Positions 33,380 to 45,559 of a DNA stretch of 64,000 nucleotides are shown here, in pieces. Within the stretch, counting starts at the first letter, position 1, and each line of letters starts with the position of its first letter. The stretch covers positions 38,567-102,566 of the forward strand of contig CAZXHT010000002.1 of the NCBI GenBank assembly GCA_964640665.1, in the 5' to 3' direction. The notes under the pieces were generated by a model. It saw only the letters and a program-made list of their open reading frames with translations, did no database searches and was not told the origin of the DNA. The translations under genes were made by a program, and so were the position numbers. This DNA comes from an uncultured Myxococcales bacterium. GTDB lineage: Bacteria > Myxococcota > B64-G9.

Positions 33380-35836
33380 ATGTCGGGGAAAATACACGTC
33401 ATCGTTCACGGTCACTTCTACCAGCCGCCCAGGGAAAATCCCTGGAGCGGGAGAATCGAGCGCCAGCCGTCGGCCGCGCCATTCCATGACTGGAACGAGC
33501 GCGTCACCAAAGAATGTTACGCACCCAACACGCACAGCCGGATCCAGGACAATCGGGGCCGCTTGGTCGAGGTGGTCAACAACTTCGAGCACATCAGTTT
33601 CAACTTCGGCCCGACGTTGCTGTCCTACCTGGAGAGCGAGCACCCGGATACCTATCGGCGCATCATCCAGGCGGACGAGATCAGCGCGAACGCTCGCGGA
33701 TACGGCAACGCCATGGCCCAGTGTTACAACCACATGATCATGCCCCTGGCGTCGGCACGGGACCGCTGGACCCAGATCCAGTGGGGGCTTGCCGATTTCC
33801 GGACTCGCTTCAGGCGCGAGCCGTCCGGCATGTGGTTGCCGGAGACGGCCGTCAACGAGGAGACCCTGTGCGACCTGGTGCGGGCGGGGATCGAGTTCAT
33901 CCTGCTTTCTCCGTCCCAGGTCGAGGCCTACCGCCGGCTGGACGGCGGATCCTGGCGGGACGGCCCCCCGCCGACCGATCGCCCCTATCTTTGTCGCACT
34001 CCGGCCGGGGATATCGACATCTTGTTCTACCATGCCGGCCTGAGTTCGGCCGTGGCCTTCGAACACCTGCTGCGCAACGCCGCCATCTTCGCAGATCGTA
34101 TCGCCGGGGCGGCGCGGGAAAGCGATCTCGAAGGAGACCGGTTGGTCTTCGTCTGCTCGGACGGCGAGAGTTACGGACATCACGAGAAACTCGGGGACAT
34201 GTGTCTGGCCTACCTGGCCACGCAGGAATTGCCGGCCAGGAACATGCTGATGACGAGTCCCCGGTGCTATCTCGCCGGGCACCGGCCGGCGTTCGAGGTC
34301 CGCCTCAAGCCGGGGCGGGACGGCCAGGGCACCGCCTGGAGCTGTGCCCACGGGGTTGACCGCTGGCAGGCTGACTGTGGTTGTTCGGACGGCGGCCGGC
34401 CCGGGTGGAACCAGGCCTGGCGCGGGCCACTCAGGCGTGCCTTCGATGAACTGCGGGACGAGATCGATCCCCTTTTCGAACGCCGGGGACTTGCCTATCT
34501 GAACGATCCATGGGCGGCCAGGGATGACTACATCAAGGTTGTTCTGGGAAAACCCCTCGGGTCTGCCCAGGCATTCTTCACCGAGCACCTGTGTGCCGAT
34601 GCGCCCGGCGATGCACATACGGCCGTCTTTCGCCTGATGGAAATGCAGCGCCACGCCATGTTGATGTACACGTCTTGCGGCTGGTTCTTTGCCGACTTGG
34701 CCGGGCTGGAAGCGGTGCAGAACATGCGCTACGCCGCGCGAGCGGCCGAACTGGGCAAGCTCATTGCGGGAACGGCACAGGACTCCGAAATGCGCCGCTG
34801 GCTGGAAGAGGCCGGAAGCAACCTTCCCGAGGAGGACAGCGGCCTTTCCATTCTGAATCGCAGGGTGCTACCCGAGGCCCTGCCGCCCGCTAAAGCTGCT
34901 GCACAATACGCCGTGCTCTCGATGCTGCGTGCCGGAGAGGAGAATGACCGTTCGTGCGGATACAGGATCGAGGTACACGAAAGAAAAATTGCCGCGCGCA
35001 GCGGGTTCGAGGCCGGCGTTTACAAACTCACCGTGGTGGCCGAAAGAACACACGAGGGAGGCACATTCGGCGCGGTGGTGCTGGTCGGCAGCGGCTTGCG
35101 CCTGGCGGCCTTCATCGGCCGGGCAAGGCCCGAGGCAAATCCGCAAGACCCGGAACGGATCCTTTCCGAGTTGGAGCGTGAAGGTTTCGATCAGGCTTGC
35201 AGGAACCTTACGGAAAAAACCGGGCACTACTTCGGGTTGGGTGATCTGTCACCGCAAACCCGCGAACTCGTGGTGGGGGCGCTGCTTGACCCGTTGCTTG
35301 CCGAGCTTGGTCGTACCTATGAAGAAGTTTTCACGGGCAACGAGTGGCTGGTCGACGCGCTCGTGCCCCTGGGAATAGCCCTGCCGGCGCCCTTGCGCCC
35401 GGCGATAGGCTGGGCCGGCTCGGCGCGCTTCAACGCGCTGGTCGAGCGATCGCTGGACGACGCCAACCTGGAGCGGGCGGCCGAGTTGGCGGCAAGGCTT
35501 TCGGTCCTGAACGTTCCGCTCGACATGCAGTCCGCGACCAGACGCGTGTCGCACAGATTGATGGAGCTTCTCGAAGACATCCTGGTCGATCCGCGAGCGG
35601 AGCGAGTTAGCGCGTTCATGGGCTTGCTACGTGACGGCAGGCGAATCGGTCTGGACATCGATGAGGCGACCCTGCAGGTCAGGCTGGGTCTCGCGCTGGG
35701 CGGACTGGTCTCCGGATTGCTCGATCCGCGCAAGCCGGGTGGTGCGGCGCCGGATACGGCCCGGGCAATAGTCGAACTGGCAGATTTACTCAGGCTGGAA
35801 ACGCAAGGGGCAAGGCTGATGATGGATGGTGACTGA
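33380..35836 (+). CDS. Glycoside hydrolase family 57-like protein with C-terminal DUF3536-type domain
   Basis: N-terminal HVIVHGHFYQPPRENPW signature of GH57; 818 aa. Confidence 0.8.
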   Translation: MSGKIHVIVHGHFYQPPRENPWSGRIERQPSAAPFHDWNERVTKECYAPNTHSRIQDNRGRLVEVVNNFEHISFNFGPTLLSYLESEHPDTYRRIIQADEISANARGYGNAMAQCYNHMIMPLASARDRWTQIQWGLADFRTRFRREPSGMWLPETAVNEETLCDLVRAGIEFILLSPSQVEAYRRLDGGSWRDGPPPTDRPYLCRTPAGDIDILFYHAGLSSAVAFEHLLRNAAIFADRIAGAARESDLEGDRLVFVCSDGESYGHHEKLGDMCLAYLATQELPARNMLMTSPRCYLAGHRPAFEVRLKPGRDGQGTAWSCAHGVDRWQADCGCSDGGRPGWNQAWRGPLRRAFDELRDEIDPLFERRGLAYLNDPWAARDDYIKVVLGKPLGSAQAFFTEHLCADAPGDAHTAVFRLMEMQRHAMLMYTSCGWFFADLAGLEAVQNMRYAARAAELGKLIAGTAQDSEMRRWLEEAGSNLPEEDSGLSILNRRVLPEALPPAKAAAQYAVLSMLRAGEENDRSCGYRIEVHERKIAARSGFEAGVYKLTVVAERTHEGGTFGAVVLVGSGLRLAAFIGRARPEANPQDPERILSELEREGFDQACRNLTEKTGHYFGLGDLSPQTRELVVGALLDPLLAELGRTYEEVFTGNEWLVDALVPLGIALPAPLRPAIGWAGSARFNALVERSLDDANLERAAELAARLSVLNVPLDMQSATRRVSHRLMELLEDILVDPRAERVSAFMGLLRDGRRIGLDIDEATLQVRLGLALGGLVSGLLDPRKPGGAAPDTARAIVELADLLRLETQGARLMMDGD

Positions 35837-36914: not shown

Positions 36915-38192
36915 ATGTGTCAACGACCTCGATTTGACCCGGGATGGGGTATTGGCTATGTTTTCGCCAGGGAGCGTAGCCATATCGTGGATGAGCGGCA
37001 ACCAGGACCAGAGCGCGGCGGCGGGGTGTTTACTCCGATCGAGATCGGTCCGCTCAAGCTTCGCAATCGGGTGATCAAGGCGGCAACCTTCGAGGGTATG
37101 ACTCCGGGAGGTTTACCGTCGGATGATCTAGTCGAACACCATCGGCGGGTGGCGGCCGGGGGCGCCGGCATGACCACCGTGGCATATTGCTCCGTATCGC
37201 CCGAGGGTTTAACGTTTCCCGACCAGATGCACATGCGCCCGGAGATCGTGCCCGGCCTTAGCAGGCTTACGGCGGCTGTTCATCACGAGGGCGCCACGGC
37301 CGCCCTGCAACTGGGGCACGCCGGTTACTTCGCCTCGCGTAAGGCCGCCGGCTGTCGTCCGGTCGGGGCGTCGCGGGTACTCAATCTGTATACTCTGACC
37401 CGCCCGCGAGTCATGAACCCGGCCGACATGGAGAGAATTCGCGACGATTTCGCCAAGGCCACGACGTTGGCCGCCGAGGCAGGGTTCGACGCCGTCGAGG
37501 TCCACCTTGGCCACGGCTACCTTCTGAGCCAGTTCCTGTCTCCCTACACCAACCGGCGCCGTGACATGTTCGGCGGGGATATCGAGGCGCGCCTGCGCTT
37601 TCCGATCGAGGTTGTCAAGGCCGTCCGTGGGGCCGCCGGCAGCAAGATGGCGGTGCTGGTCAAGGCCAACCTCGAAGACGGGTTCAAAGGCGGGTTGGGG
37701 ATCGAAGAAGCGATTGAAGTGGCCCGGGCGCTCGAAGCGAACGCCGTTGACGCAATCGTGCTCAGCGGCGGGTTCGTCAGCCGGACACCCTTTTACATGC
37801 TGCGCGGCGACCTGCCGGTGGCCGAGATGGTTCGCAACGAGAAGAAGAGACTGCGCCGAATCGGCCTCAGGCTTTTCGGACGAATCTTCGTCAAGGTCTA
37901 TCCTTTCGAGGAAATGTTCTTCTTCGAACAGGCGCAGAAGGTGCGCCGGGCTGTGAAGGTTCCTCTGTGTCTGCTCGGCGGAATACGTTCGTTGGCCAAC
38001 ATCGAAAAGGCCATGAGCGCCGGTTTCGATCTGATCTCGATGGGCCGCCCGCTGATTCTAGATCCGGACCTGGTTTTGCACATGAAGGCCGGGAAGTGCG
38101 ACGCCTCGGTCTGCGAGCCCTGCAACCTGTGCGTGGCGCGCATGGAGGCCGGAGGAATAATCTGCGCCCATCCGCGCCTGGGCGCCTCGTGA
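36915..38192 (+). CDS. NADH:flavin oxidoreductase (Old Yellow Enzyme family)
   Basis: FTPIEIGPLKLRNRVIKAA...GAGMTTVAY OYE N-terminal motifs; true start probably GTG near 37026 (ORF track start 36915 uncertain). Confidence 0.8.
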   Translation: MCQRPRFDPGWGIGYVFARERSHIVDERQPGPERGGGVFTPIEIGPLKLRNRVIKAATFEGMTPGGLPSDDLVEHHRRVAAGGAGMTTVAYCSVSPEGLTFPDQMHMRPEIVPGLSRLTAAVHHEGATAALQLGHAGYFASRKAAGCRPVGASRVLNLYTLTRPRVMNPADMERIRDDFAKATTLAAEAGFDAVEVHLGHGYLLSQFLSPYTNRRRDMFGGDIEARLRFPIEVVKAVRGAAGSKMAVLVKANLEDGFKGGLGIEEAIEVARALEANAVDAIVLSGGFVSRTPFYMLRGDLPVAEMVRNEKKRLRRIGLRLFGRIFVKVYPFEEMFFFEQAQKVRRAVKVPLCLLGGIRSLANIEKAMSAGFDLISMGRPLILDPDLVLHMKAGKCDASVCEPCNLCVARMEAGGIICAHPRLGAS

Positions 38193-38298
38193 AGCTTCTA
38201 CCTCTGGAATACGCTGACTCCAGCCTTGCGGGCGGAGTTCGGCTTCTCGTCGGGGATGGTCCAGGCAAAGGCCAAAGAGCAGTCGAGCACCAATTTCA

Positions 38299-38553
38299 TC
38301 AGAAGCGGCGTCCTTCATCAATCAACTTACTAATACTCAGGCCGGGTCCCACCCTTTTCCTGATCTCGCGGAACTTTTCCAGGATTTCGGCGAAGTCCGG
38401 TTCATGGTCATCTTCATTATAAGGAACCAGGCGGGCCACGACCTTGCCGCGACGGCGGATGACGAAGGAACGTCCCTTCTCGGTTTCGCGGAGAAGCTCG
38501 GCCAGGCGGGTCTTGGCTTCGAAGGAACCAATTTCATCTTCATGGACAACCAA
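38299..38553 (-). CDS. Phd/YefM-family type II antitoxin (orphan, C-terminally extended)
   Basis: N-terminal IGSFEAKTRLAELLRETEKGRSFVIRRRGKVVARLVP matches Phd/YefM fold consensus; no cognate toxin ORF adjacent. Confidence 0.6.
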   Translation of the reverse strand: MVVHEDEIGSFEAKTRLAELLRETEKGRSFVIRRRGKVVARLVPYNEDDHEPDFAEILEKFREIRKRVGPGLSISKLIDEGRRF

Positions 38554-38781
38554 CTGGAATACCTCCTTGTTGTCTTCTGTAAACCAGTTTATTAAATCAG
38601 TAGAATAACGTCAAGGGAAGAAGGGGACGGCGGAGAAGATCATCACGTGGAAAAGCACCTCGACTCAGATGATTTATTGCCATTTCCTGAAATAGTATCG
38701 GATCTTCTTAATCGACATGTTTCTTGAAGGTCGATGTAGATATTGGTACACTGTTCTTGTAAAAAGATATATTAGCTCTCA

Positions 38782-39426
38782 TTGACACCTCATGGGCTGG
38801 TATTCACGATGAACGACACGCAGATTCGGGAAGGCCTCCATAAAAAATTACTGAAGAGGCATCATATTTGTAAGGATACACTCGTTGTCAACGAGTTGGG
38901 CCTGAGACATGGTACTAACCGGGCTGACATTGTTGTAATAAATGGGAACCTTGTCGGATACGAGATCAAGAGTGACAAAGACTCATTGCACCGACTCAAA
39001 GAACAAGTACCCGCGTATACCTCGGTTTTTGACTGGTCTTCGGTGGTGGTTGGCACTCGACACAAGACGGTGATTGAATCGTTGGTGCCTGACAACTGGG
39101 GAGTAATAGTGTCATACCAAGGTCCCAGAGGCGGTGTCCACTTTGAAACGCTACGTGTGGCTCGCAGGAACCAAGCAGTGGATCCTTTCGCGATTGCACA
39201 ACTACTCTGGCGAGATGAAGCCGTGGCTATCCTTGCGGAGAAAGATGTGCCAGCGCGAGTACTGCGACAGTGCCGTTCTGTGCTCTACAAGCATCTCGTG
39301 GAAATGCTCAGTCTATCGGAATTGCAGAGTCGGGTCAGGGCTTTCCTGAAGAACCGTAGAAACTGGCGACATCCCGCACAACCTTTTCAAGATGGTGGTT
39401 TGTGCCGACCCACCGCCAAGTTGTAA
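38782..39426 (+). CDS. PD-(D/E)xK-type nuclease-fold protein (MmcB/sce7726-like)
   Basis: Core RADIVVINGNLVGYEIKSDKDS gives D...E-x-K arrangement typical of restriction-endonuclease-like fold; 214 aa. Confidence 0.5.
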   Translation: MTPHGLVFTMNDTQIREGLHKKLLKRHHICKDTLVVNELGLRHGTNRADIVVINGNLVGYEIKSDKDSLHRLKEQVPAYTSVFDWSSVVVGTRHKTVIESLVPDNWGVIVSYQGPRGGVHFETLRVARRNQAVDPFAIAQLLWRDEAVAILAEKDVPARVLRQCRSVLYKHLVEMLSLSELQSRVRAFLKNRRNWRHPAQPFQDGGLCRPTAKL

Positions 39427-40453
39427 GGTTGCCCGTTGTTTCAGTGCCGCCTGCGCAGCCTTTAATGTACTCGTCCCCTTTTGAGAAACTGTCCCCACAG
39501 TAGCCTTGTGAATCCATGACTGTTCGGCAATGGCCTTTGTACTGCCCGAATTTATGGTCTCGGACATTCGGTCCTTTGACCACAAACCAGGCATCATCGA
39601 TTGCGTACCTGATGCTTGCCGATGGCTTCACCTTTCGCATGTCCACCAACAGAACCTGCGGGTGGCTGATTGTATAGTCTCCAAAGGTGGGGATTCGAGA
39701 ACTACCAAGCCTGCTGGCTACTTTCTTGTAAAGAAGCCATTCATAGCGTTCAATAACTGAAGGACTATGCTTCACTTCTGCCATTGACTGTGGAAACGAG
39801 GCACCTAGAAGGATGAATGTTCTCCACTTCTTCAGGTATGGTATTCGTTCGATGATCGCTTGCACGAGTTTGCTGAAGCCTTCAAGAGGGAGGAAATTGG
39901 GTGACCCCAAGTCGAGGACGAGGTCACACTCATTTGCCCTCATCTCCATGAGCTTCAATAACTTATTGAGGTTGACCTCAAGGCTTGATCTGTTGGCTAG
40001 TTCAATTCCTATACGTAGACAGAGACCTTTTTTATCCTTGCTGATAGCACGCTTGACTGAACTCTGGTAGCGATGATCTCTCTCCAGCCCAGTTACAGGT
40101 ACCGCATGACATTTCTCAGCTCGGAGTTCATTGAAAACATAGTCGACCGGGTGCCTTCGGCTCTTCATCATTGTCTTCGAATCCAACAGATTGAGATCTA
40201 CAAAGCAAGGCTGTTGTCCCCACTTTGTACTGACTCGCTTGGCGAAGGGTTCCAGGTGCTCATCGACTGTCCTCTTGTCAGACTGTGCCTCAAAATCGAA
40301 ACCGATTTCCGGAACCTCTATGAACGGAGTAAGTGAACGCTTTGCTGACTTGGATAGCCGCAGCACGGCCTGATACTCCCCCTGTTTCCATCGGAGGCAC
40401 GGAACATAATGTTCATGGTCGAATCTCATCGTAAACCTCCTTTCACTGTCCAA
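39335..40453 (-). CDS. Uncharacterised 372-aa protein (last gene of HTH/ImmA operon), C-terminal Cys cluster
   Basis: Long ORF with 11-bp overlap with upstream XRE/ImmA gene; C-terminal HCx9CGDx9C pattern; no recognisable catalytic motif. Confidence 0.5.
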   Translation of the reverse strand: MDSERRFTMRFDHEHYVPCLRWKQGEYQAVLRLSKSAKRSLTPFIEVPEIGFDFEAQSDKRTVDEHLEPFAKRVSTKWGQQPCFVDLNLLDSKTMMKSRRHPVDYVFNELRAEKCHAVPVTGLERDHRYQSSVKRAISKDKKGLCLRIGIELANRSSLEVNLNKLLKLMEMRANECDLVLDLGSPNFLPLEGFSKLVQAIIERIPYLKKWRTFILLGASFPQSMAEVKHSPSVIERYEWLLYKKVASRLGSSRIPTFGDYTISHPQVLLVDMRKVKPSASIRYAIDDAWFVVKGPNVRDHKFGQYKGHCRTVMDSQGYCGDSFSKGDEYIKGCAGGTETTGNLTTWRWVGTNHHLEKVVRDVASFYGSSGKP

Positions 40454-41735
40454 ATCGGACCTCGGTGAATTGCTTCCTCACCTCGCCTAGTCCCACCATG
40501 TCTTTGAGGATTACGTAATTGTTCGCCTCTTTTCTTATCCTCCCTGCGATGATAGCGGTGCCTATCTTGAGCTTAATCGCTGCTTCCCTGATGGCCTCCT
40601 CGGTTCTAACATATCGAGCCAGAGCTGTTTCCCACATGTCATCAGGGATAAGCATATTCCCAGCGAAGTCATTGGCCTCCCGCTCCACGTCATCACCCTC
40701 TATGTCGAGGTCATCGAAGATGTCTTCAATCTTCCCTTTGCGTAGATGCTTGACCACATGGGCCAACTCGTGAAAAAGGACAAACCAAAAATTATCAAGT
40801 CTATCATACCGCAACGTCATACCGATAACTGGGTGTCCGTCTCTAAGAAGAAAAGTAGCTCCATCCAGATATGTCCTTGGAAGATGAGGTTCAAAAACAA
40901 GAGAGATGCCAGATTTTGCCAAGTACTCCTTGGCCAATTGTGGCCCATTAGTTTGTTGACTCATCTGCGCCAGCTCACGAAACCACCTAACTGACAGTCC
41001 CTTGCGTTCAAAATCGCCTACGTCTTTCTCCATGCCAGAGAGCAGGAGAATCCGACATTGCCAAGCGATGAGAGCATAGGTGTCCATATTTCTGCCCATA
41101 CGGGCTCGCTGTCGGAGAAGGGCTGGCTGTCGCAAGGGCATTGCCTTCTCGATGAAATCCTTCACAAGTTCATCTGCACATGACATGGCCGTCGACAGTG
41201 AGCCTTTGAAGTCCTCAAACCAGTTCCGACGATACATTTCTTTTACTGGGAACAAACTCCAATCCAGTTCTTTGGGATCGCCTTTGTATGCCCTGGTAGG
41301 AGTCCCAACAATTTCGGCAACTTCACTGATGTTTAGGTTAAGGGTCCTCGCCACTTGTGTGATCCTCTGCAAGCTTGCTGAGGAATAATATTCAGCCTCA
41401 TACCTTTGGACTTGCTGCTCCTTCACGCCGAGCATTTCAGCCAGTTCTCGTTGGGATAGACCCTTGGCAATCCTCGCTTGGATGAGTACCGTTGGCATTT
41501 GTTCTAGAGACGCCGCACTTAATACCGTGATCGCACCGGATTCCAGTGCTTCATATTCACGAATTTGATCGGAGAGGCTCAAGACTTCACTTTCCAATGC
41601 GCTAAATTCGGCCTTTGCTAGAACTGCTGAACCCGTGCGTTGTGCAGCTTCCTTGATGTCAAAGGCCTCTACCGCATCTTTGAGTTTCCGATACTGAGCC
41701 CTTGTTATTCTATACTGCCGGTCATTAGTAATCAT
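40443..41735 (-). CDS. XRE-family HTH domain fused to ImmA/IrrE-family zinc metallopeptidase
   Basis: HTH_XRE (IAKGLSQRELAEMLGVKEQQVQRYE) at aa ~95-150; HEXXH (FHELAHVV) plus EREANDFAGNMLIP downstream, diagnostic of COG2856 ImmA/IrrE. Confidence 0.8.
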   Translation of the reverse strand: MITNDRQYRITRAQYRKLKDAVEAFDIKEAAQRTGSAVLAKAEFSALESEVLSLSDQIREYEALESGAITVLSAASLEQMPTVLIQARIAKGLSQRELAEMLGVKEQQVQRYEAEYYSSASLQRITQVARTLNLNISEVAEIVGTPTRAYKGDPKELDWSLFPVKEMYRRNWFEDFKGSLSTAMSCADELVKDFIEKAMPLRQPALLRQRARMGRNMDTYALIAWQCRILLLSGMEKDVGDFERKGLSVRWFRELAQMSQQTNGPQLAKEYLAKSGISLVFEPHLPRTYLDGATFLLRDGHPVIGMTLRYDRLDNFWFVLFHELAHVVKHLRKGKIEDIFDDLDIEGDDVEREANDFAGNMLIPDDMWETALARYVRTEEAIREAAIKLKIGTAIIAGRIRKEANNYVILKDMVGLGEVRKQFTEVRFGQ

Positions 41736-41749
41736 TCAGTCCTCCATCC

Positions 41750-42229
41750 TCACATGAGTCGGACACGGACAATGCCTTTCTGCTTGCCCGTGTGCCTGTC
41801 CTTCTGGAAATACTCCACGAAGGTTCTTCGTCCATTCGCAAATGCGCTCGATGGGAATAACTCACCCTCGAATTTGTCCTTCTGGTTTTTTCGGCTGTCG
41901 CTGAAATCTAGTAGGACCGGGTCTAACTTCTTGGCGTTGACACCTACGGGGTCCCAGCAGGCATCGTAATCACCCGGTTCCGGCTTCCCGGTAACAAAAC
42001 TTCCGTCGATGTAGACCGTTTTACACCCAGCTCTCTGAAGGGCCTCTATACTTGCTTTCAATCCTGTAAAAAGCATTTGGCGTCGTGGCGTCGTGGCAAA
42101 TACCTTCTTAACCTCATCAAGTGTTGCATCGTGTACCCCAGGAGGCAGGACCGGCCAAGGACTCTTGATGTCAACCAGCTCAGGAATCATGACACAATTA
42201 TATTGTTGTGTTGATAAATGATCCAGCAA
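41750..42229 (-). CDS. Putative minimal nucleotidyltransferase (pol-beta superfamily)-like protein
   Basis: IDGSFVTGKPEPGDYD fits hG[GS]x9-13DhD NTase motif; 159 aa; first gene of operon, 14 bp upstream of XRE/ImmA gene. Confidence 0.4.
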   Translation of the reverse strand: MLDHLSTQQYNCVMIPELVDIKSPWPVLPPGVHDATLDEVKKVFATTPRRQMLFTGLKASIEALQRAGCKTVYIDGSFVTGKPEPGDYDACWDPVGVNAKKLDPVLLDFSDSRKNQKDKFEGELFPSSAFANGRRTFVEYFQKDRHTGKQKGIVRVRLM

Positions 42230-42487
42230 AATGTCATAAAAAAATCAAAATGCCATGAGGCGGGAGTTGTTCTTCGAACGAGGCGTGTCAATAAACATAT
42301 TTGTATTCGATCAAGCCAGCGATCGGGCGCGTCGAATTCACCGTTGTCGTCGGGTCGGGCCGCAATCTGCACACCGGGGACACTCCCGATAGCCACCGGC
42401 ACATCGGAAGTCGGCAAGCCACAGACACGCACCGCGACCCAGTGCCGCCCGTGCCACCACCGCCACAGAACGATGGGGTGTTTGGTC

Positions 42488-44107
42488 TTACGTTGTCAAT
42501 CGCTTCAAATTGTCAACTGCTTGGACAACGAGCTCATCTGGAAAAGCGCCACGACTCAGCAATTCAATTGCATTTGTTGTCTTGCACAGTCCGGGTTTCA
42601 GGCGATAGTCGAAAAGGATGTCACTGCCCTGATAATGCTCTGAGAAATGGTACCTTTCAAAATTGTGATCAACCAACGTGCCAATCGCAAGGTCATGGGT
42701 GGCAACAATAACAAGGTTGCTCTTTGCCAAGTATTGGATGACTGCCGCAGCAGCCGCGACTCGCTCCACGGGATTTGTCCCCCTGAACAATTCGTCAACA
42801 ATGAAAAGGCAGTTGTTTCGGCTTGTGCTATACCCAACCAGTTTCTGGATGACATCAACCTCTACCGCAAACAAGCTCTTGCCGTTTTCAATGTCATCTG
42901 CAATGTCGATTGAAGTTTTAATGTAAAACAGACAGGCTTCGTACTTGCGTGCCACAGACGTATTGATGGTTTGAGCAAGAATCGCGTTCAATGCGACAGT
43001 TTTCAAAAACGTGGTCTTCCCGGACATATTGGAACCGGTAATCAACATGCTTGATCCATGGATTTCGAATGAATTGCCGATCGCCCGGTCTAGCCTCGGA
43101 TGAAGAAGGTTCTCGGCCTTGATCAGGCAAGGTGTATCGACAAATTCTGGTTTGCACCAGACGGGCTGGCTTCTGCGGTATGATGCAATTGAAATGCAGG
43201 CATCGATCAAGCCGATGGATCGAAAGAGAATGCGAAGATGCTTCTGGCTGTTTTCAATTTGTTCCCGGAGGGAGCCATAAGCGAGAACTTTTCTGAGTGT
43301 CAGGATGTTGAGATAGTCCAGCAGTTGTGTCGGATCTCTGAGCTGTATATACCTGCATTTTCTGGCGAGCGGGAGACACTGGTTGATGCTGGCGGAAAAT
43401 TCGACTTCGGAGGGAAAGTTTTTCCCGATAAGTTCGTGCAGATTTGCGCTCGATTGTATGAGTCTACCGAGACAGGAGAGGACATCGATTTCGTAGCCAA
43501 AAACCTCTTCGTACTTGTAGTGAACCATTAAGTTTATTAAAAACATCACAAGGGCGGCAGCCCAAAACAGAGGCTTGAAGACGGCCACAACAACGAACAC
43601 AATCAGGGCGATTGTACAAAGCCTGACCACTGTAATTGACAACGGAGGCTTGGGGAGGTTCTTCCAGATAAGCCTCGGTAGAGAAAATGAAGTATCATCG
43701 TCAAGGGAGAGAAGCTCAACTTGTGCTTTCTCGCGCAATTCAGCGTCGGTTTCAAACAACTCGACAAGTGGCTCCGGGACAGTTATCGCCTCTGAGTTGA
43801 GGCATGGCGTGACGAGAGTCTGATAGAGGTACTGCGATCCAGGGCTCGAGGTTGCGTGGTCGATAGATCCAAACACAAAATTGATATCAAGATCAGACCT
43901 TGTCCTACTGTCCAGCGAGAATCTGTTGAAGTCATCCGGGTTCTCTGAATCGATCTGTTCATAGAATTTGCACTTCTCGATTGGCCGCGGCGAACTCCGG
44001 CGATTTCCCCATTCCCGGCGCAGCCTCTTGAGTTGTTCCGCCTTTTTCGAAAAGATGCAGATTCGAGAGAGAACCGATCTGAAATGAGCCGCCGCGTTGG
44101 TGAGCAT
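42488..44107 (-). CDS. Membrane-anchored MutS-domain-V-like ABC ATPase
   Basis: Walker A ITGSNMSGKTTFLK, Walker B LFIVDELFRGTN, VIVATHD; two predicted TM helices (aa ~165-215); no mismatch-binding N-domain. Confidence 0.7.
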   Translation of the reverse strand: MLTNAAAHFRSVLSRICIFSKKAEQLKRLRREWGNRRSSPRPIEKCKFYEQIDSENPDDFNRFSLDSRTRSDLDINFVFGSIDHATSSPGSQYLYQTLVTPCLNSEAITVPEPLVELFETDAELREKAQVELLSLDDDTSFSLPRLIWKNLPKPPLSITVVRLCTIALIVFVVVAVFKPLFWAAALVMFLINLMVHYKYEEVFGYEIDVLSCLGRLIQSSANLHELIGKNFPSEVEFSASINQCLPLARKCRYIQLRDPTQLLDYLNILTLRKVLAYGSLREQIENSQKHLRILFRSIGLIDACISIASYRRSQPVWCKPEFVDTPCLIKAENLLHPRLDRAIGNSFEIHGSSMLITGSNMSGKTTFLKTVALNAILAQTINTSVARKYEACLFYIKTSIDIADDIENGKSLFAVEVDVIQKLVGYSTSRNNCLFIVDELFRGTNPVERVAAAAAVIQYLAKSNLVIVATHDLAIGTLVDHNFERYHFSEHYQGSDILFDYRLKPGLCKTTNAIELLSRGAFPDELVVQAVDNLKRLTT

Positions 44108-44119
44108 TGTTTTCCCCTT

Positions 44120-45559
44120 TCAGTGCCAGAAGCCTATCCCGGCTCCGATATCGAGGTAGCCCGGTGCCCCGTCCACCGTGAGCGAGGCTCGCAGGTCGAA
44201 GGGATCCGTGTAGCCGAAGAGGTCCCACCTGAAAAGGCGCAGCTCCAGGCCGCCCGTGCCATGGGGTCGTAATGGTACGCCGGCGTAGCGGGGTGGCTCG
44301 AGGTAGAAGCCGGCTCTCAACTTGAGGCGATCGGGCCAGATTTCTGTTTCGGCTCCGAGCCTGAAGCCGAAAGAAAGGCCGTCACCGGACGCCCGCCTCT
44401 TCTGCTCGACGAATGAGTCGATGCCGACGCCGTCTGTGGTGCCGCCGATGATGAAAACATCCGCGCTCATAAGCAAATATGATTTGGGAAGAGACTCGTA
44501 CTCCTTGCGTCGCTCGTGCTCGATCACCGCTTCCCGTACATCCAACGCCTTTTCGAGCAAGAGCTCCTCCGCCTCGCGAAGCTTCTTCTCCCGAGCCCAC
44601 CAGATCTCGTCACGAGGCATGTCTAAAAGGTTGGGGCACTCGTCCGACGTAGTGATCCCTTCACGATCCGGTTTCTCCAGGGCCTGCTGGGCCACCGCGC
44701 GTTTGCAGCGCGCGCTTTCGATATGCTTGCGCAGATCCTGCTGCGGATCTGGTGGAGCCGACCAGACACGGTTCATCGGCCGCGGGCCGAACTGCCAGGC
44801 GAAACCCAACTGGACTTCCCAGGGCATGTGAACTCCGCGCGGCAGCACAAAGTTTTTGACGTAGCTCGTGCCGTCGCGCACCTCGACCCCCGGGGTCTTG
44901 TCCGGCCCGGACTCGACCGGCCCGCGGCCGGAAACTCCCAGCCGCCAGGGCATGTCGGCCAACTTCAAGAGCACGCCTCCTTCGACGCCGGCTCCGGTGA
45001 AATGCACCAAAGTGGTGTCGTCGGCCAGTTTGAGATCCAGGTCGGCGACCCGCGTTCCCAGCCCCACGATCAACTGCCCGCTAAAGAAGGCATAGGCCAC
45101 ACCGGCATGGCTTTCTATCAGGAAGATGTTAATCGGTTCTCCCGCCGAGCCGGTATTGTAGATCTGCAGTCGGGTGTCTGCCCCGATTCCCAAACTGCCG
45201 AACTGCAGGCGCAAACCCAGGCCGAGAAATGAGAACTTCTCAACTCCGATGCCCGAACCGTTGTTGAAGAAATCATCGAGCCCGAAGATGCCGGGCGCGC
45301 AGTAAGACAACGACAGACCGTACGAGAACCAGGAGAACTCGTAGGGCGGTCGCGAACCAAAAGATGCCGGATTGAAGTGTGCCCCATCGATATCCTCGGC
45401 CAGGGCGGTGTAGGCCCCGCCCATTCCCACAACGCGGCTCGAACCCAGCACCGGCCCGGTCACGGCGTCTATCTCGAAGTCGTTATGCGCGAAGATATCC
45501 TGGGCGGTCACCGGGCACGATAGTGCCACAATGAGCAAGATGGAGGACATGACGCGCAT
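44120..45559 (-). CDS. Putative outer-membrane beta-barrel protein
   Basis: Signal peptide LLIVALSCPVTAQD, alternating amphipathic beta-strand pattern, Gly/aromatic-rich, C-terminal GIGFWH. Confidence 0.45.
   Translation of the reverse strand: MRVMSSILLIVALSCPVTAQDIFAHNDFEIDAVTGPVLGSSRVVGMGGAYTALAEDIDGAHFNPASFGSRPPYEFSWFSYGLSLSYCAPGIFGLDDFFNNGSGIGVEKFSFLGLGLRLQFGSLGIGADTRLQIYNTGSAGEPINIFLIESHAGVAYAFFSGQLIVGLGTRVADLDLKLADDTTLVHFTGAGVEGGVLLKLADMPWRLGVSGRGPVESGPDKTPGVEVRDGTSYVKNFVLPRGVHMPWEVQLGFAWQFGPRPMNRVWSAPPDPQQDLRKHIESARCKRAVAQQALEKPDREGITTSDECPNLLDMPRDEIWWAREKKLREAEELLLEKALDVREAVIEHERRKEYESLPKSYLLMSADVFIIGGTTDGVGIDSFVEQKRRASGDGLSFGFRLGAETEIWPDRLKLRAGFYLEPPRYAGVPLRPHGTGGLELRLFRWDLFGYTDPFDLRASLTVDGAPGYLDIGAGIGFWH

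Follow-up and report, generated by a model that had tools for sequence, protein, structure and literature searches.

A predicted P4 cII-like nuclease gene convergent with a Beta operon in a Myxococcales genome and its relation to PD-Lambda-2 and gop-beta-cII

Two described anti-phage systems lie closest to the locus analyzed here. PD-Lambda-2 contains a HigB-like component (A), an Xre-peptidase (B) and a P4-beta-like protein (C), and is an abortive-infection (Abi), toxin-antitoxin (TA)-like system (PMC9519451); B is toxic alone, A rescues from it and C is needed for defence (PMC9519451, Vassallo et al. 2022). The gop-beta-cII locus of satellite phage P4, named 'gop_beta_cll' by PADLOC and DefenseFinder, protects against lambda and P1, and Gop is toxic when beta is missing (PMC9122126, Rousset et al. 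2022); the toxicity of gop-beta-cII is triggered by the phage orf184 (bioRxiv 10.1101/2023.04.06.535777). None of the three publications (PMC9519451, PMC9122126 and bioRxiv 10.1101/2023.04.06.535777) assigns a role to cII. The locus studied here lies in a stretch of 64,000 nucleotides (nt) of contig CAZXHT010000002.1 from an uncultured Myxococcales bacterium (the window, whose first letter is position 1). It shows an operon with the order DUF6932, Xre-type helix-turn-helix (HTH)-M78 peptidase fusion (Xre-M78) and Beta, and a P4 cII-like gene of the sce7726 family, predicted to encode a nuclease, on the opposite strand.

In the reading that we favour, with a probability of roughly two in three (0.68), an intact P4 cII/sce7726 nuclease on the opposite strand makes up the fourth component of a mobile module of low GC (guanine plus cytosine) content built on the Beta operon. 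Judged by sequence matches, this module combines components B and C of PD-Lambda-2 with beta and cII of P4 gop-beta-cII, two validated anti-phage, TA-like systems.

The nuclease gene and its predicted catalytic core

The mechanically called plus-strand open reading frame (ORF) spans 38782..39426, starts at a TTG, ends with a TAA stop at 39424-39426, encodes 214 amino acids (aa) and contains NRADIVVINGNLVGYEIKSDKDSL. Its actual start is likely the ATG at 38809, giving a protein of 205 aa, because the family profiles (NCBIfam and PADLOC searches) start at residue 10 of the 214-aa ORF, close homologues are mostly of 204-205 aa, and the Joint Genome Institute (JGI) gene call on the identical metagenome contig is of 205 aa.

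The family profiles place the protein as an ordinary member of the named family PF26915/NF033832. It matches NCBIfam NF033832 ('sce7726 family protein') with 161.2 bits against a cutoff of 70 (E 2.4e-47, profile positions 1-183 of 184), the PADLOC 'cll' profile (6.3e-30) and phrog_984, and precomputed annotations assign Pfam PF26915 (Phage_P4_cII) to the identical protein P0001, to the identical JGI gene and to all close homologues. The cII of P4 (NC_001609), whose gene is labelled 'sce7726 family protein' in RefSeq, is homologous to it (tblastn, 27.5% identity over 82% of the query, E 1e-11). Neither the NF033832 nor the PF26915 entry, as accessible, states a function.

Across 73 aligned homologues, six residues do not vary: E29 (codon 38893-95), D40 (38926-28), E52 (38962-64), K54 (38968-70), Q66 (39004-06) and Y70 (39016-18). 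They form a D...ExK core followed by QxxxY, which we take to be the motif recognised as RecB/Cas4-type, so that the complete set of PD-(D/E)xK catalytic residues (D...(D/E)xK, the E of the first element and QxxxY) is present. The AlphaFold model has a predicted local distance difference test (pLDDT) value of 90 and a predicted template modelling score (pTM) of 0.84, with residues 192-205 disordered (pLDDT <50). It shows a restriction-endonuclease-like alpha-beta-beta-beta-alpha-beta core in which D40 lies between strands 37-39 and 41-44, and E52 and K54 lie at the end of strand 48-54; a C-terminal helical domain (residues ~126-187) extends beyond the MmcB-like core. The structural neighbours are PD-(D/E)xK nucleases. 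An earlier note on this DNA, made from the letters alone, had read a PD-(D/E)xK motif in the 214-aa ORF, and both the invariance of its catalytic residues and the predicted structure bear this out. Motif and model together indicate that the protein is probably a catalytically intact PD-(D/E)xK enzyme.

The same note had compared the protein with MmcB-type DNA repair proteins. This likeness holds in the model, as the nearest named neighbours in BFVD (viral) are called 'MmcB-like / MmcB family DNA repair', but it does not extend to sequence: in a Pfam copy without PF26915, none of the 73 members gave any match at E up to 1, the MmcB-like (DUF1052) family included, and searches with Pfam and PDB profiles connected the protein by sequence neither to MmcB nor to a solved structure. 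As far as the models indicate, the likeness is structural only. The structure 3dnx (SPO1766) presumably belongs to the MmcB-like/DUF1052 Pfam family. Unlike MmcB-like proteins, the window nuclease has the extra C-terminal helical domain and a different genomic context.

Most of the nuclease gene (526 of 618 nt) lies outside Beta. In the nuclease frame upstream of W186, third codon positions vary freely and second positions are conserved. From this codon-position pattern, the AlphaFold confidence and the NCBIfam score far above cutoff, the ORF is not a chance antisense ORF. Upstream of the gene the DNA is AT-rich (GC 0.43 in 38500-38999 against ~0.61 in the flanks), and the region 38554..38808 presumably holds the gene's own promoter; a consensus sigma-70 site was not found upstream of the gene on the plus strand, although this consensus may not be that of the host.

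Association of the nuclease with Beta

The convergent ORF, on the minus strand, spans 39335..40453, encodes 372 aa, starts at TTG 40453 and has its stop at 39335-39337. Its start is probably the ATG at 40429, giving 364 aa, in agreement with P0121 (100% identity), which comes from a contig of 174 kb. The protein matches PF14350 (1.9e-88), PADLOC PD-Lambda-2_C (2.4e-57) and PADLOC 'beta' (1.5e-12), and its TIM barrel carries numerous invariant acidic residues.

Co-occurrence was analyzed from both sides. On the nuclease side, the sample is the best 80 of 536 relatives in a genome collection, and the counts describe these 80 and not the family as a whole. Their sources are Planctomycetota, Verrucomicrobiota, Desulfobacterota, Chloroflexota, Actinomycetota, Alphaproteobacteria, Bacteroidota, Spirochaetota, Myxococcota and others, which amounts to at least ten phyla. 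Beta is immediately next, on the opposite strand, in all 77 loci with downstream DNA, the remaining three ending at a contig edge. On the Beta side, the sample consists of metagenome loci with at least 49% identity to the Beta of the window, and a convergent nuclease was found in all 79 with downstream DNA. The rest of the operon is more variable: Xre-M78 lies upstream of Beta in 53 genomic loci and in 77 of 81 metagenomic ones, and DUF6932 is found in 43 and 58, respectively. Only the two-gene pair is found in Bradyrhizobium/Afipia, Azospirillum, Nannocystis and an E. coli Rac-type prophage.

The pair also reaches beyond these samples. Annotated pairs are carried on plasmids of Agrobacterium, Rhizobium, Sinorhizobium, Rhodococcus, Acinetobacter and E. 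coli; among 5426 complete E. coli genomes, 93 contain it (blastn with the Rac-type pair as query), and the Rac-type locus is the only one found. The nuclease is also present in all six phage records bearing a Beta homologue, and the same arrangement is seen in P4, Rac-SA53 and Gordonia and Mycolicibacterium phages. Among divergent viral contigs (27-45% identity), 57 of 82 are paired, all 57 convergently, and 25 stand alone. Thus the nuclease-Beta pair is strict and reciprocal in the clade, facultative across the family and convergent wherever present, with no exception in more than 210 pairs. The earlier note had suggested that the two genes form a functional pair of effector and partner; their reciprocal and orientation-fixed co-occurrence, with every genomic and metagenomic locus that could be scored being paired, strongly supports the pair itself, the two roles being putative. 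The link is already implicit in cII-beta of P4 and in RefSeq annotations.

Several records of the pair show annotation gaps or altered genes. In Gordonia phage DumpsterDude (L003, 4001-4612) and Mycolicibacterium phage Mycofy1 (L090, 3001-3603) the cII-like ORF is unannotated, and the DumpsterDude record places a small 'gene 32' on the opposite strand within it; the homologue in Gordonia phage Powerball is named 'exonuclease'. The overlap with Beta probably caused the omissions in the actinophage records. In three large Acinetobacter resistance plasmids (NZ_CP014478, NZ_CP045561 and NZ_CP059301; H37-H39) the Beta match covers residues 65-360 only, is annotated 'hypothetical' and adjoins sce7726, and the module may be disrupted there; a paper on pAC1633-1/pAC1530 depicts the NDM-1 transposon Tn125 with immA/irrE and sce7726 genes next to it. 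The insertion sequence IS1A splits the beta gene in E. coli PEC209 (NZ_CM168015, H56), and ~1.5 kb is inserted between nuclease and Beta in one viral contig (L114). Two pair-only loci (L047, 8057-8794, plus strand; L035, 2297-2980, plus strand) show a gene upstream of Beta, on the opposite strand, that starts MNYSEYIVYIDESGDHG or has FVDEYGTAGFGD and, by eye only, resembles DUF3800. NCBIfam models gave no matches to the Beta proteins when we asked whether 'sce7725' is Beta.

The overlapping 3' ends and the alternative readings

The nuclease and Beta ORFs overlap by 92 nt (39335-39426), as the earlier note had reported, and both stop positions are confirmed. The overlap is not peculiar to the window, since it recurs in 76 of 77 genomic and 78 of 79 metagenomic loci. 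In the genomic sample it ranges between 32 and 119 nt, with modes at 77, 80, 89, 92 and 110 nt, and every length is 2 modulo 3, which corresponds to a single antisense phase with codon position 1 opposite 1 and position 2 opposite 3. Furthermore, in 77 of 80 pairs the codons of the conserved nuclease residue W186 (39364-39366) and of the conserved Beta residue H345 are spaced by exactly 31 nt, insertions and deletions not having been tolerated between them.

Per-position entropy over 71 distinct junctions separates two parts. Before W186, variation falls at nuclease third positions, which are Beta second positions, so that the nuclease is constrained and Beta is past or near its stop. After R187, it falls at nuclease second positions, which are Beta third positions, and there Beta is constrained and the nuclease tail is not, its amino-acid entropy being typically 2-3.5 bits. 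Both frames look constrained at only ~5-7 codons around K181...W186-R187. At this junction the last helix of the nuclease, with the motif K181..R183..W186-R187, is antisense to the Beta stop and its last ~11 codons. Members of the family naturally end in R-x-x-W-R followed by 0-3 residues, also where Beta is lacking. The window protein has 18 extra, disordered residues, and across loci 3-24 residues follow W186; from R187 to the stop the tail has a mean of 14.9 codons, compared with 18 predicted from the stop density in that antisense phase of Beta.

The 92 nt are therefore a conserved interlock of ~35 nt (39335-39369) plus a 57-nt tail of chance read-through, in which the nuclease frame runs on antisense to the Beta helix until a chance stop. 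As a whole, the long overlap is no conserved functional feature, since only ~35 nt are conserved and the remaining 57 nt encode a disordered, unconserved tail of chance length, and this weakens the case for a regulatory role of the long overlap. A reading in which the overlap consists only of non-conserved tails of both proteins does not hold either, because the conserved C-terminal helix of Beta (335-360) falls within it and ~35 nt are constrained. In divergent viral pairs the genes overlap by 26-59 nt or are separated by 20-46 nt, in other phases.

Signals of regulation were searched for at the junction. A consensus scan of the window gave no terminator-like site in or near the overlap, RNAalifold found no conserved hairpin or RNA structure on either strand of 71 gapless junctions, and a search for operator-like repeats common to the upstream regions of nuclease and operon gave nothing convincing. 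The sequence constraint at the junction does not go beyond protein coding. Judged from the sequence, convergent read-through between the operon and the nuclease gene is plausible.

These observations bear on the view that antisense regulation is the purpose of the arrangement, the antisense coupling which the earlier note had raised. With the 3' ends of the two mRNAs complementary, transcription of the operon and that of the nuclease gene would antagonize each other, either because RNA polymerases collide or because RNase III cuts the duplex, and would act as a switch that frees the nuclease when operon transcription changes during infection. The invariably convergent orientation, the junction register fixed across phyla and the lack of a terminator-like site and of a conserved hairpin speak for it. 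However, the overlap evolves as protein constraint alone predicts, with no extra conservation at synonymous sites, and its long part is of chance length (3-24 codons); divergent paired clades have gaps and a terminator is annotated between the cII and beta genes of P4, which indicates that the pair can persist without an overlap. We regard this view as unlikely, without dismissing it. A bolder proposal, that the Beta TIM barrel and the cII-like nuclease represent an ancestral core of two genes common to PD-Lambda-2 and gop-beta-cII, that the overlooked nuclease is the real effector and that the terminator-less 3' junction is a collision switch coupling the nuclease inversely to the Xre-controlled operon, is quite doubtful as a whole. 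Beta and nuclease do occur alone in Rac-type prophages, Bradyrhizobium and actinophages, and if the nuclease were truly the effector, the three-gene definitions would omit the executing component.

It is very unlikely that the cII-like protein is mainly a DNA-binding regulator of lysogeny, immunity, the operon or the carrying mobile element. The P4 homologue is annotated as a c gene in its record, P4 cII was reportedly named as a clear-plaque gene by Ghisotti and colleagues in 1990, and the nuclease gene is a transcription unit of its own facing the operon. Against such a role, the invariance of the catalytic residues, including QxxxY, in the 73 homologues argues for retained enzymatic activity, standalone homologues belong to operons of lytic phages, where there is no lysogeny to control, and the two upstream regions gave no common operator-like repeat. 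The chance that a three-gene PD-Lambda-2-like operon simply has a non-functional antisense ORF or a decaying pseudogene next to it on the plus strand is negligible: although GC-rich window DNA yields many long spurious ORFs and PD-Lambda-2 was defined with three genes only, this reading is refuted by the invariant catalytic residues, the confident AlphaFold fold and the codon-position pattern, which reflects purifying selection in a frame lying mostly outside Beta, together with the strong family matches and the co-occurrence with Beta in 100% of the clade.

In the favoured reading, that of a four-component module with an intact nuclease, the nuclease would work jointly with Beta, either as an effector that targets DNA or as a processing partner, and its activity or expression would depend on Beta. 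In an abortive-infection response, the two proteins together could do the executing or the sensing. By analogy with A and B of PD-Lambda-2, the Xre-peptidase and DUF6932 would form a regulatory, toxin/antitoxin-like layer which releases the system on infection and leads to abortive infection. The interlocked 3' ends would mainly enforce co-inheritance, since separating either gene damages the other, with mutual transcriptional interference as a possible extra.

Several points weigh against this reading. About 30% of the divergent viral cII-like genes stand alone, standalone nuclease homologues being found in Bacillus phage Edson, Myxococcus phage Mx4 and Bequatrovirus phages, and distant Beta genes (~22% identity) occur with Xre and without a cII-like gene; the partnership is thus clade-specific and not universal. 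The TIM-barrel match of Beta is generic and points to no chemistry. Because PD-Lambda-2_A and gop are absent here, the mechanism would be transferred by analogy only. The validated PD-Lambda-2 clone (228,989-232,396 of ECOR42 contig QOYB01000002) reaches only 396 nt past gene C, which leaves no room for an intact convergent cII-like gene; if native ECOR42 does have one, it would be dispensable for defence against lambda-vir.

Neighbouring genes and comparison with described systems

The coordinates of the features are given in Table 1.

Table 1. Features of the module and of the nuclease-Beta junction, in window positions.
Feature	Position	Strand	Evidence
AT-rich region upstream of the nuclease gene	38554..38808	+	GC values
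P4 cII-like / sce7726-family gene	38809..39426	+	NF033832, PADLOC 'cll', PF26915, tblastn to P4 cII, homologue sizes
Predicted catalytic core	38893..39018	+	Six invariant residues, strand-strand-strand-helix core of the model, PD-(D/E)xK structural neighbours
Conserved back-to-back junction	39335..39369	.	Fixed register, low variation in two frames, natural C-terminus
Unconstrained nuclease C-terminal tail (HPAQPFQDGGLCRPTAKL + stop), antisense to the Beta C-terminal helix	39370..39426	+	pLDDT, entropy, tail lengths
Beta_protein family gene, TIM barrel + C-terminal helix	39335..40429	-	PF14350, PD-Lambda-2_C
Xre-type HTH + M78 (ImmA/IrrE) metallopeptidase fusion	40443..41735	-	HTH_3, Peptidase_M78; PD-Lambda-2_B 4.6e-93
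DUF6932, first operon gene	41750..42229	-	PF22014 7.9e-36; PADLOC PDC-M63A 1e-14

The Xre-M78 protein carries a HELAH motif. DUF6932 likely starts at M14 (ATG 42190) rather than at the mechanically called TTG, and alignment A3 shows in it an invariant motif, G76-S77-x9-D87-x-D89, which may represent a minimal nucleotidyltransferase signature. For Beta and DUF6932, a sequence-level link to any solved structure was not found, and the searchable literature gave no publications on DUF6932, PF26915 or PF14350.

The module lies in a low-GC island (38.5-44.1 kb, GC 0.43-0.53 compared with ~0.61 in the flanks). No tRNA genes and no convincing flanking direct repeats were found at the island borders, nor Rfam-type RNA families in 37500-45000. 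In the same island, just upstream of the DUF6932 operon, a minus-strand gene (42488-44107) encodes a protein of 539 aa with a MutS domain V (3e-26) and a faint match to domain III, lacking the mismatch-binding N-terminus; a relative is found in only one of the 80 related loci, which places it outside the conserved module. At the island edge, a Phd/YefM-type antitoxin gene (38299-38553, minus strand) is followed in the JGI annotation by a further gene. The ORF found after it (38076-38318, minus strand) lies in GC-rich DNA and has no recognisable likeness to toxins, and the Phd/YefM gene may be an orphan or belong to a truncated TA pair. The GC-rich flanks show many long, overlapping mechanical ORFs on both strands, as around 33380-35836 (plus strand), one example being of 449 aa and antisense within an 818-aa gene; with so many of them in the window, ORF length alone is poor evidence for a gene.

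The window differs from P4 gop-beta-cII in several respects, although cII and beta homologues are adjacent and convergent in both. No gop was found by PADLOC in the window, which has DUF6932 and Xre-M78 instead, and a phmmer search of 83 loci with P4 Gop matched only P4 itself. P4 cII is longer (264 aa compared with 205 aa for the window nuclease), extends into a large additional C-terminal region and lacks the WR terminus. Between the two P4 genes there is a 27-nt gap with the annotated terminator, where the window has an overlap. According to PADLOC, the Beta of the window is much closer to the PD-Lambda-2_C profiles than to the P4 'beta' profile.

In common with PD-Lambda-2, the window shows component B, as the Xre HTH-M78 protein, and component C, as Beta downstream of it, in the order B then C, and like many defence systems the module lies in a low-GC island. 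It has no match to PD-Lambda-2_A, whose place is taken by DUF6932/PDC-M63A. In addition, a fourth, convergent cII-like nuclease, strictly associated in the clade of the window, sets it apart from the published three-gene PD-Lambda-2. The strict convergent conservation, the 31-nt register, the division into junction and chance tail and the two-gene form are undescribed in the searchable literature. For annotation, the case illustrates that a 'long convergent overlap' can split into a short constrained junction and a chance read-through tail. The nuclease gene, which lies on the opposite strand and overlaps Beta, was missed by actinophage annotators and does not belong to the definition of PD-Lambda-2.

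The Beta/cII-like pair appears to be common to PD-Lambda-2 and gop-beta-cII, two validated and mechanistically opaque systems, and if the nuclease is an effector or a required partner of Beta, the definitions of these systems and their mechanistic models would need revision. The module is best described as a four-gene architecture, DUF6932/Xre-M78/Beta plus the cII-like gene, which bridges PD-Lambda-2 and gop-beta-cII.

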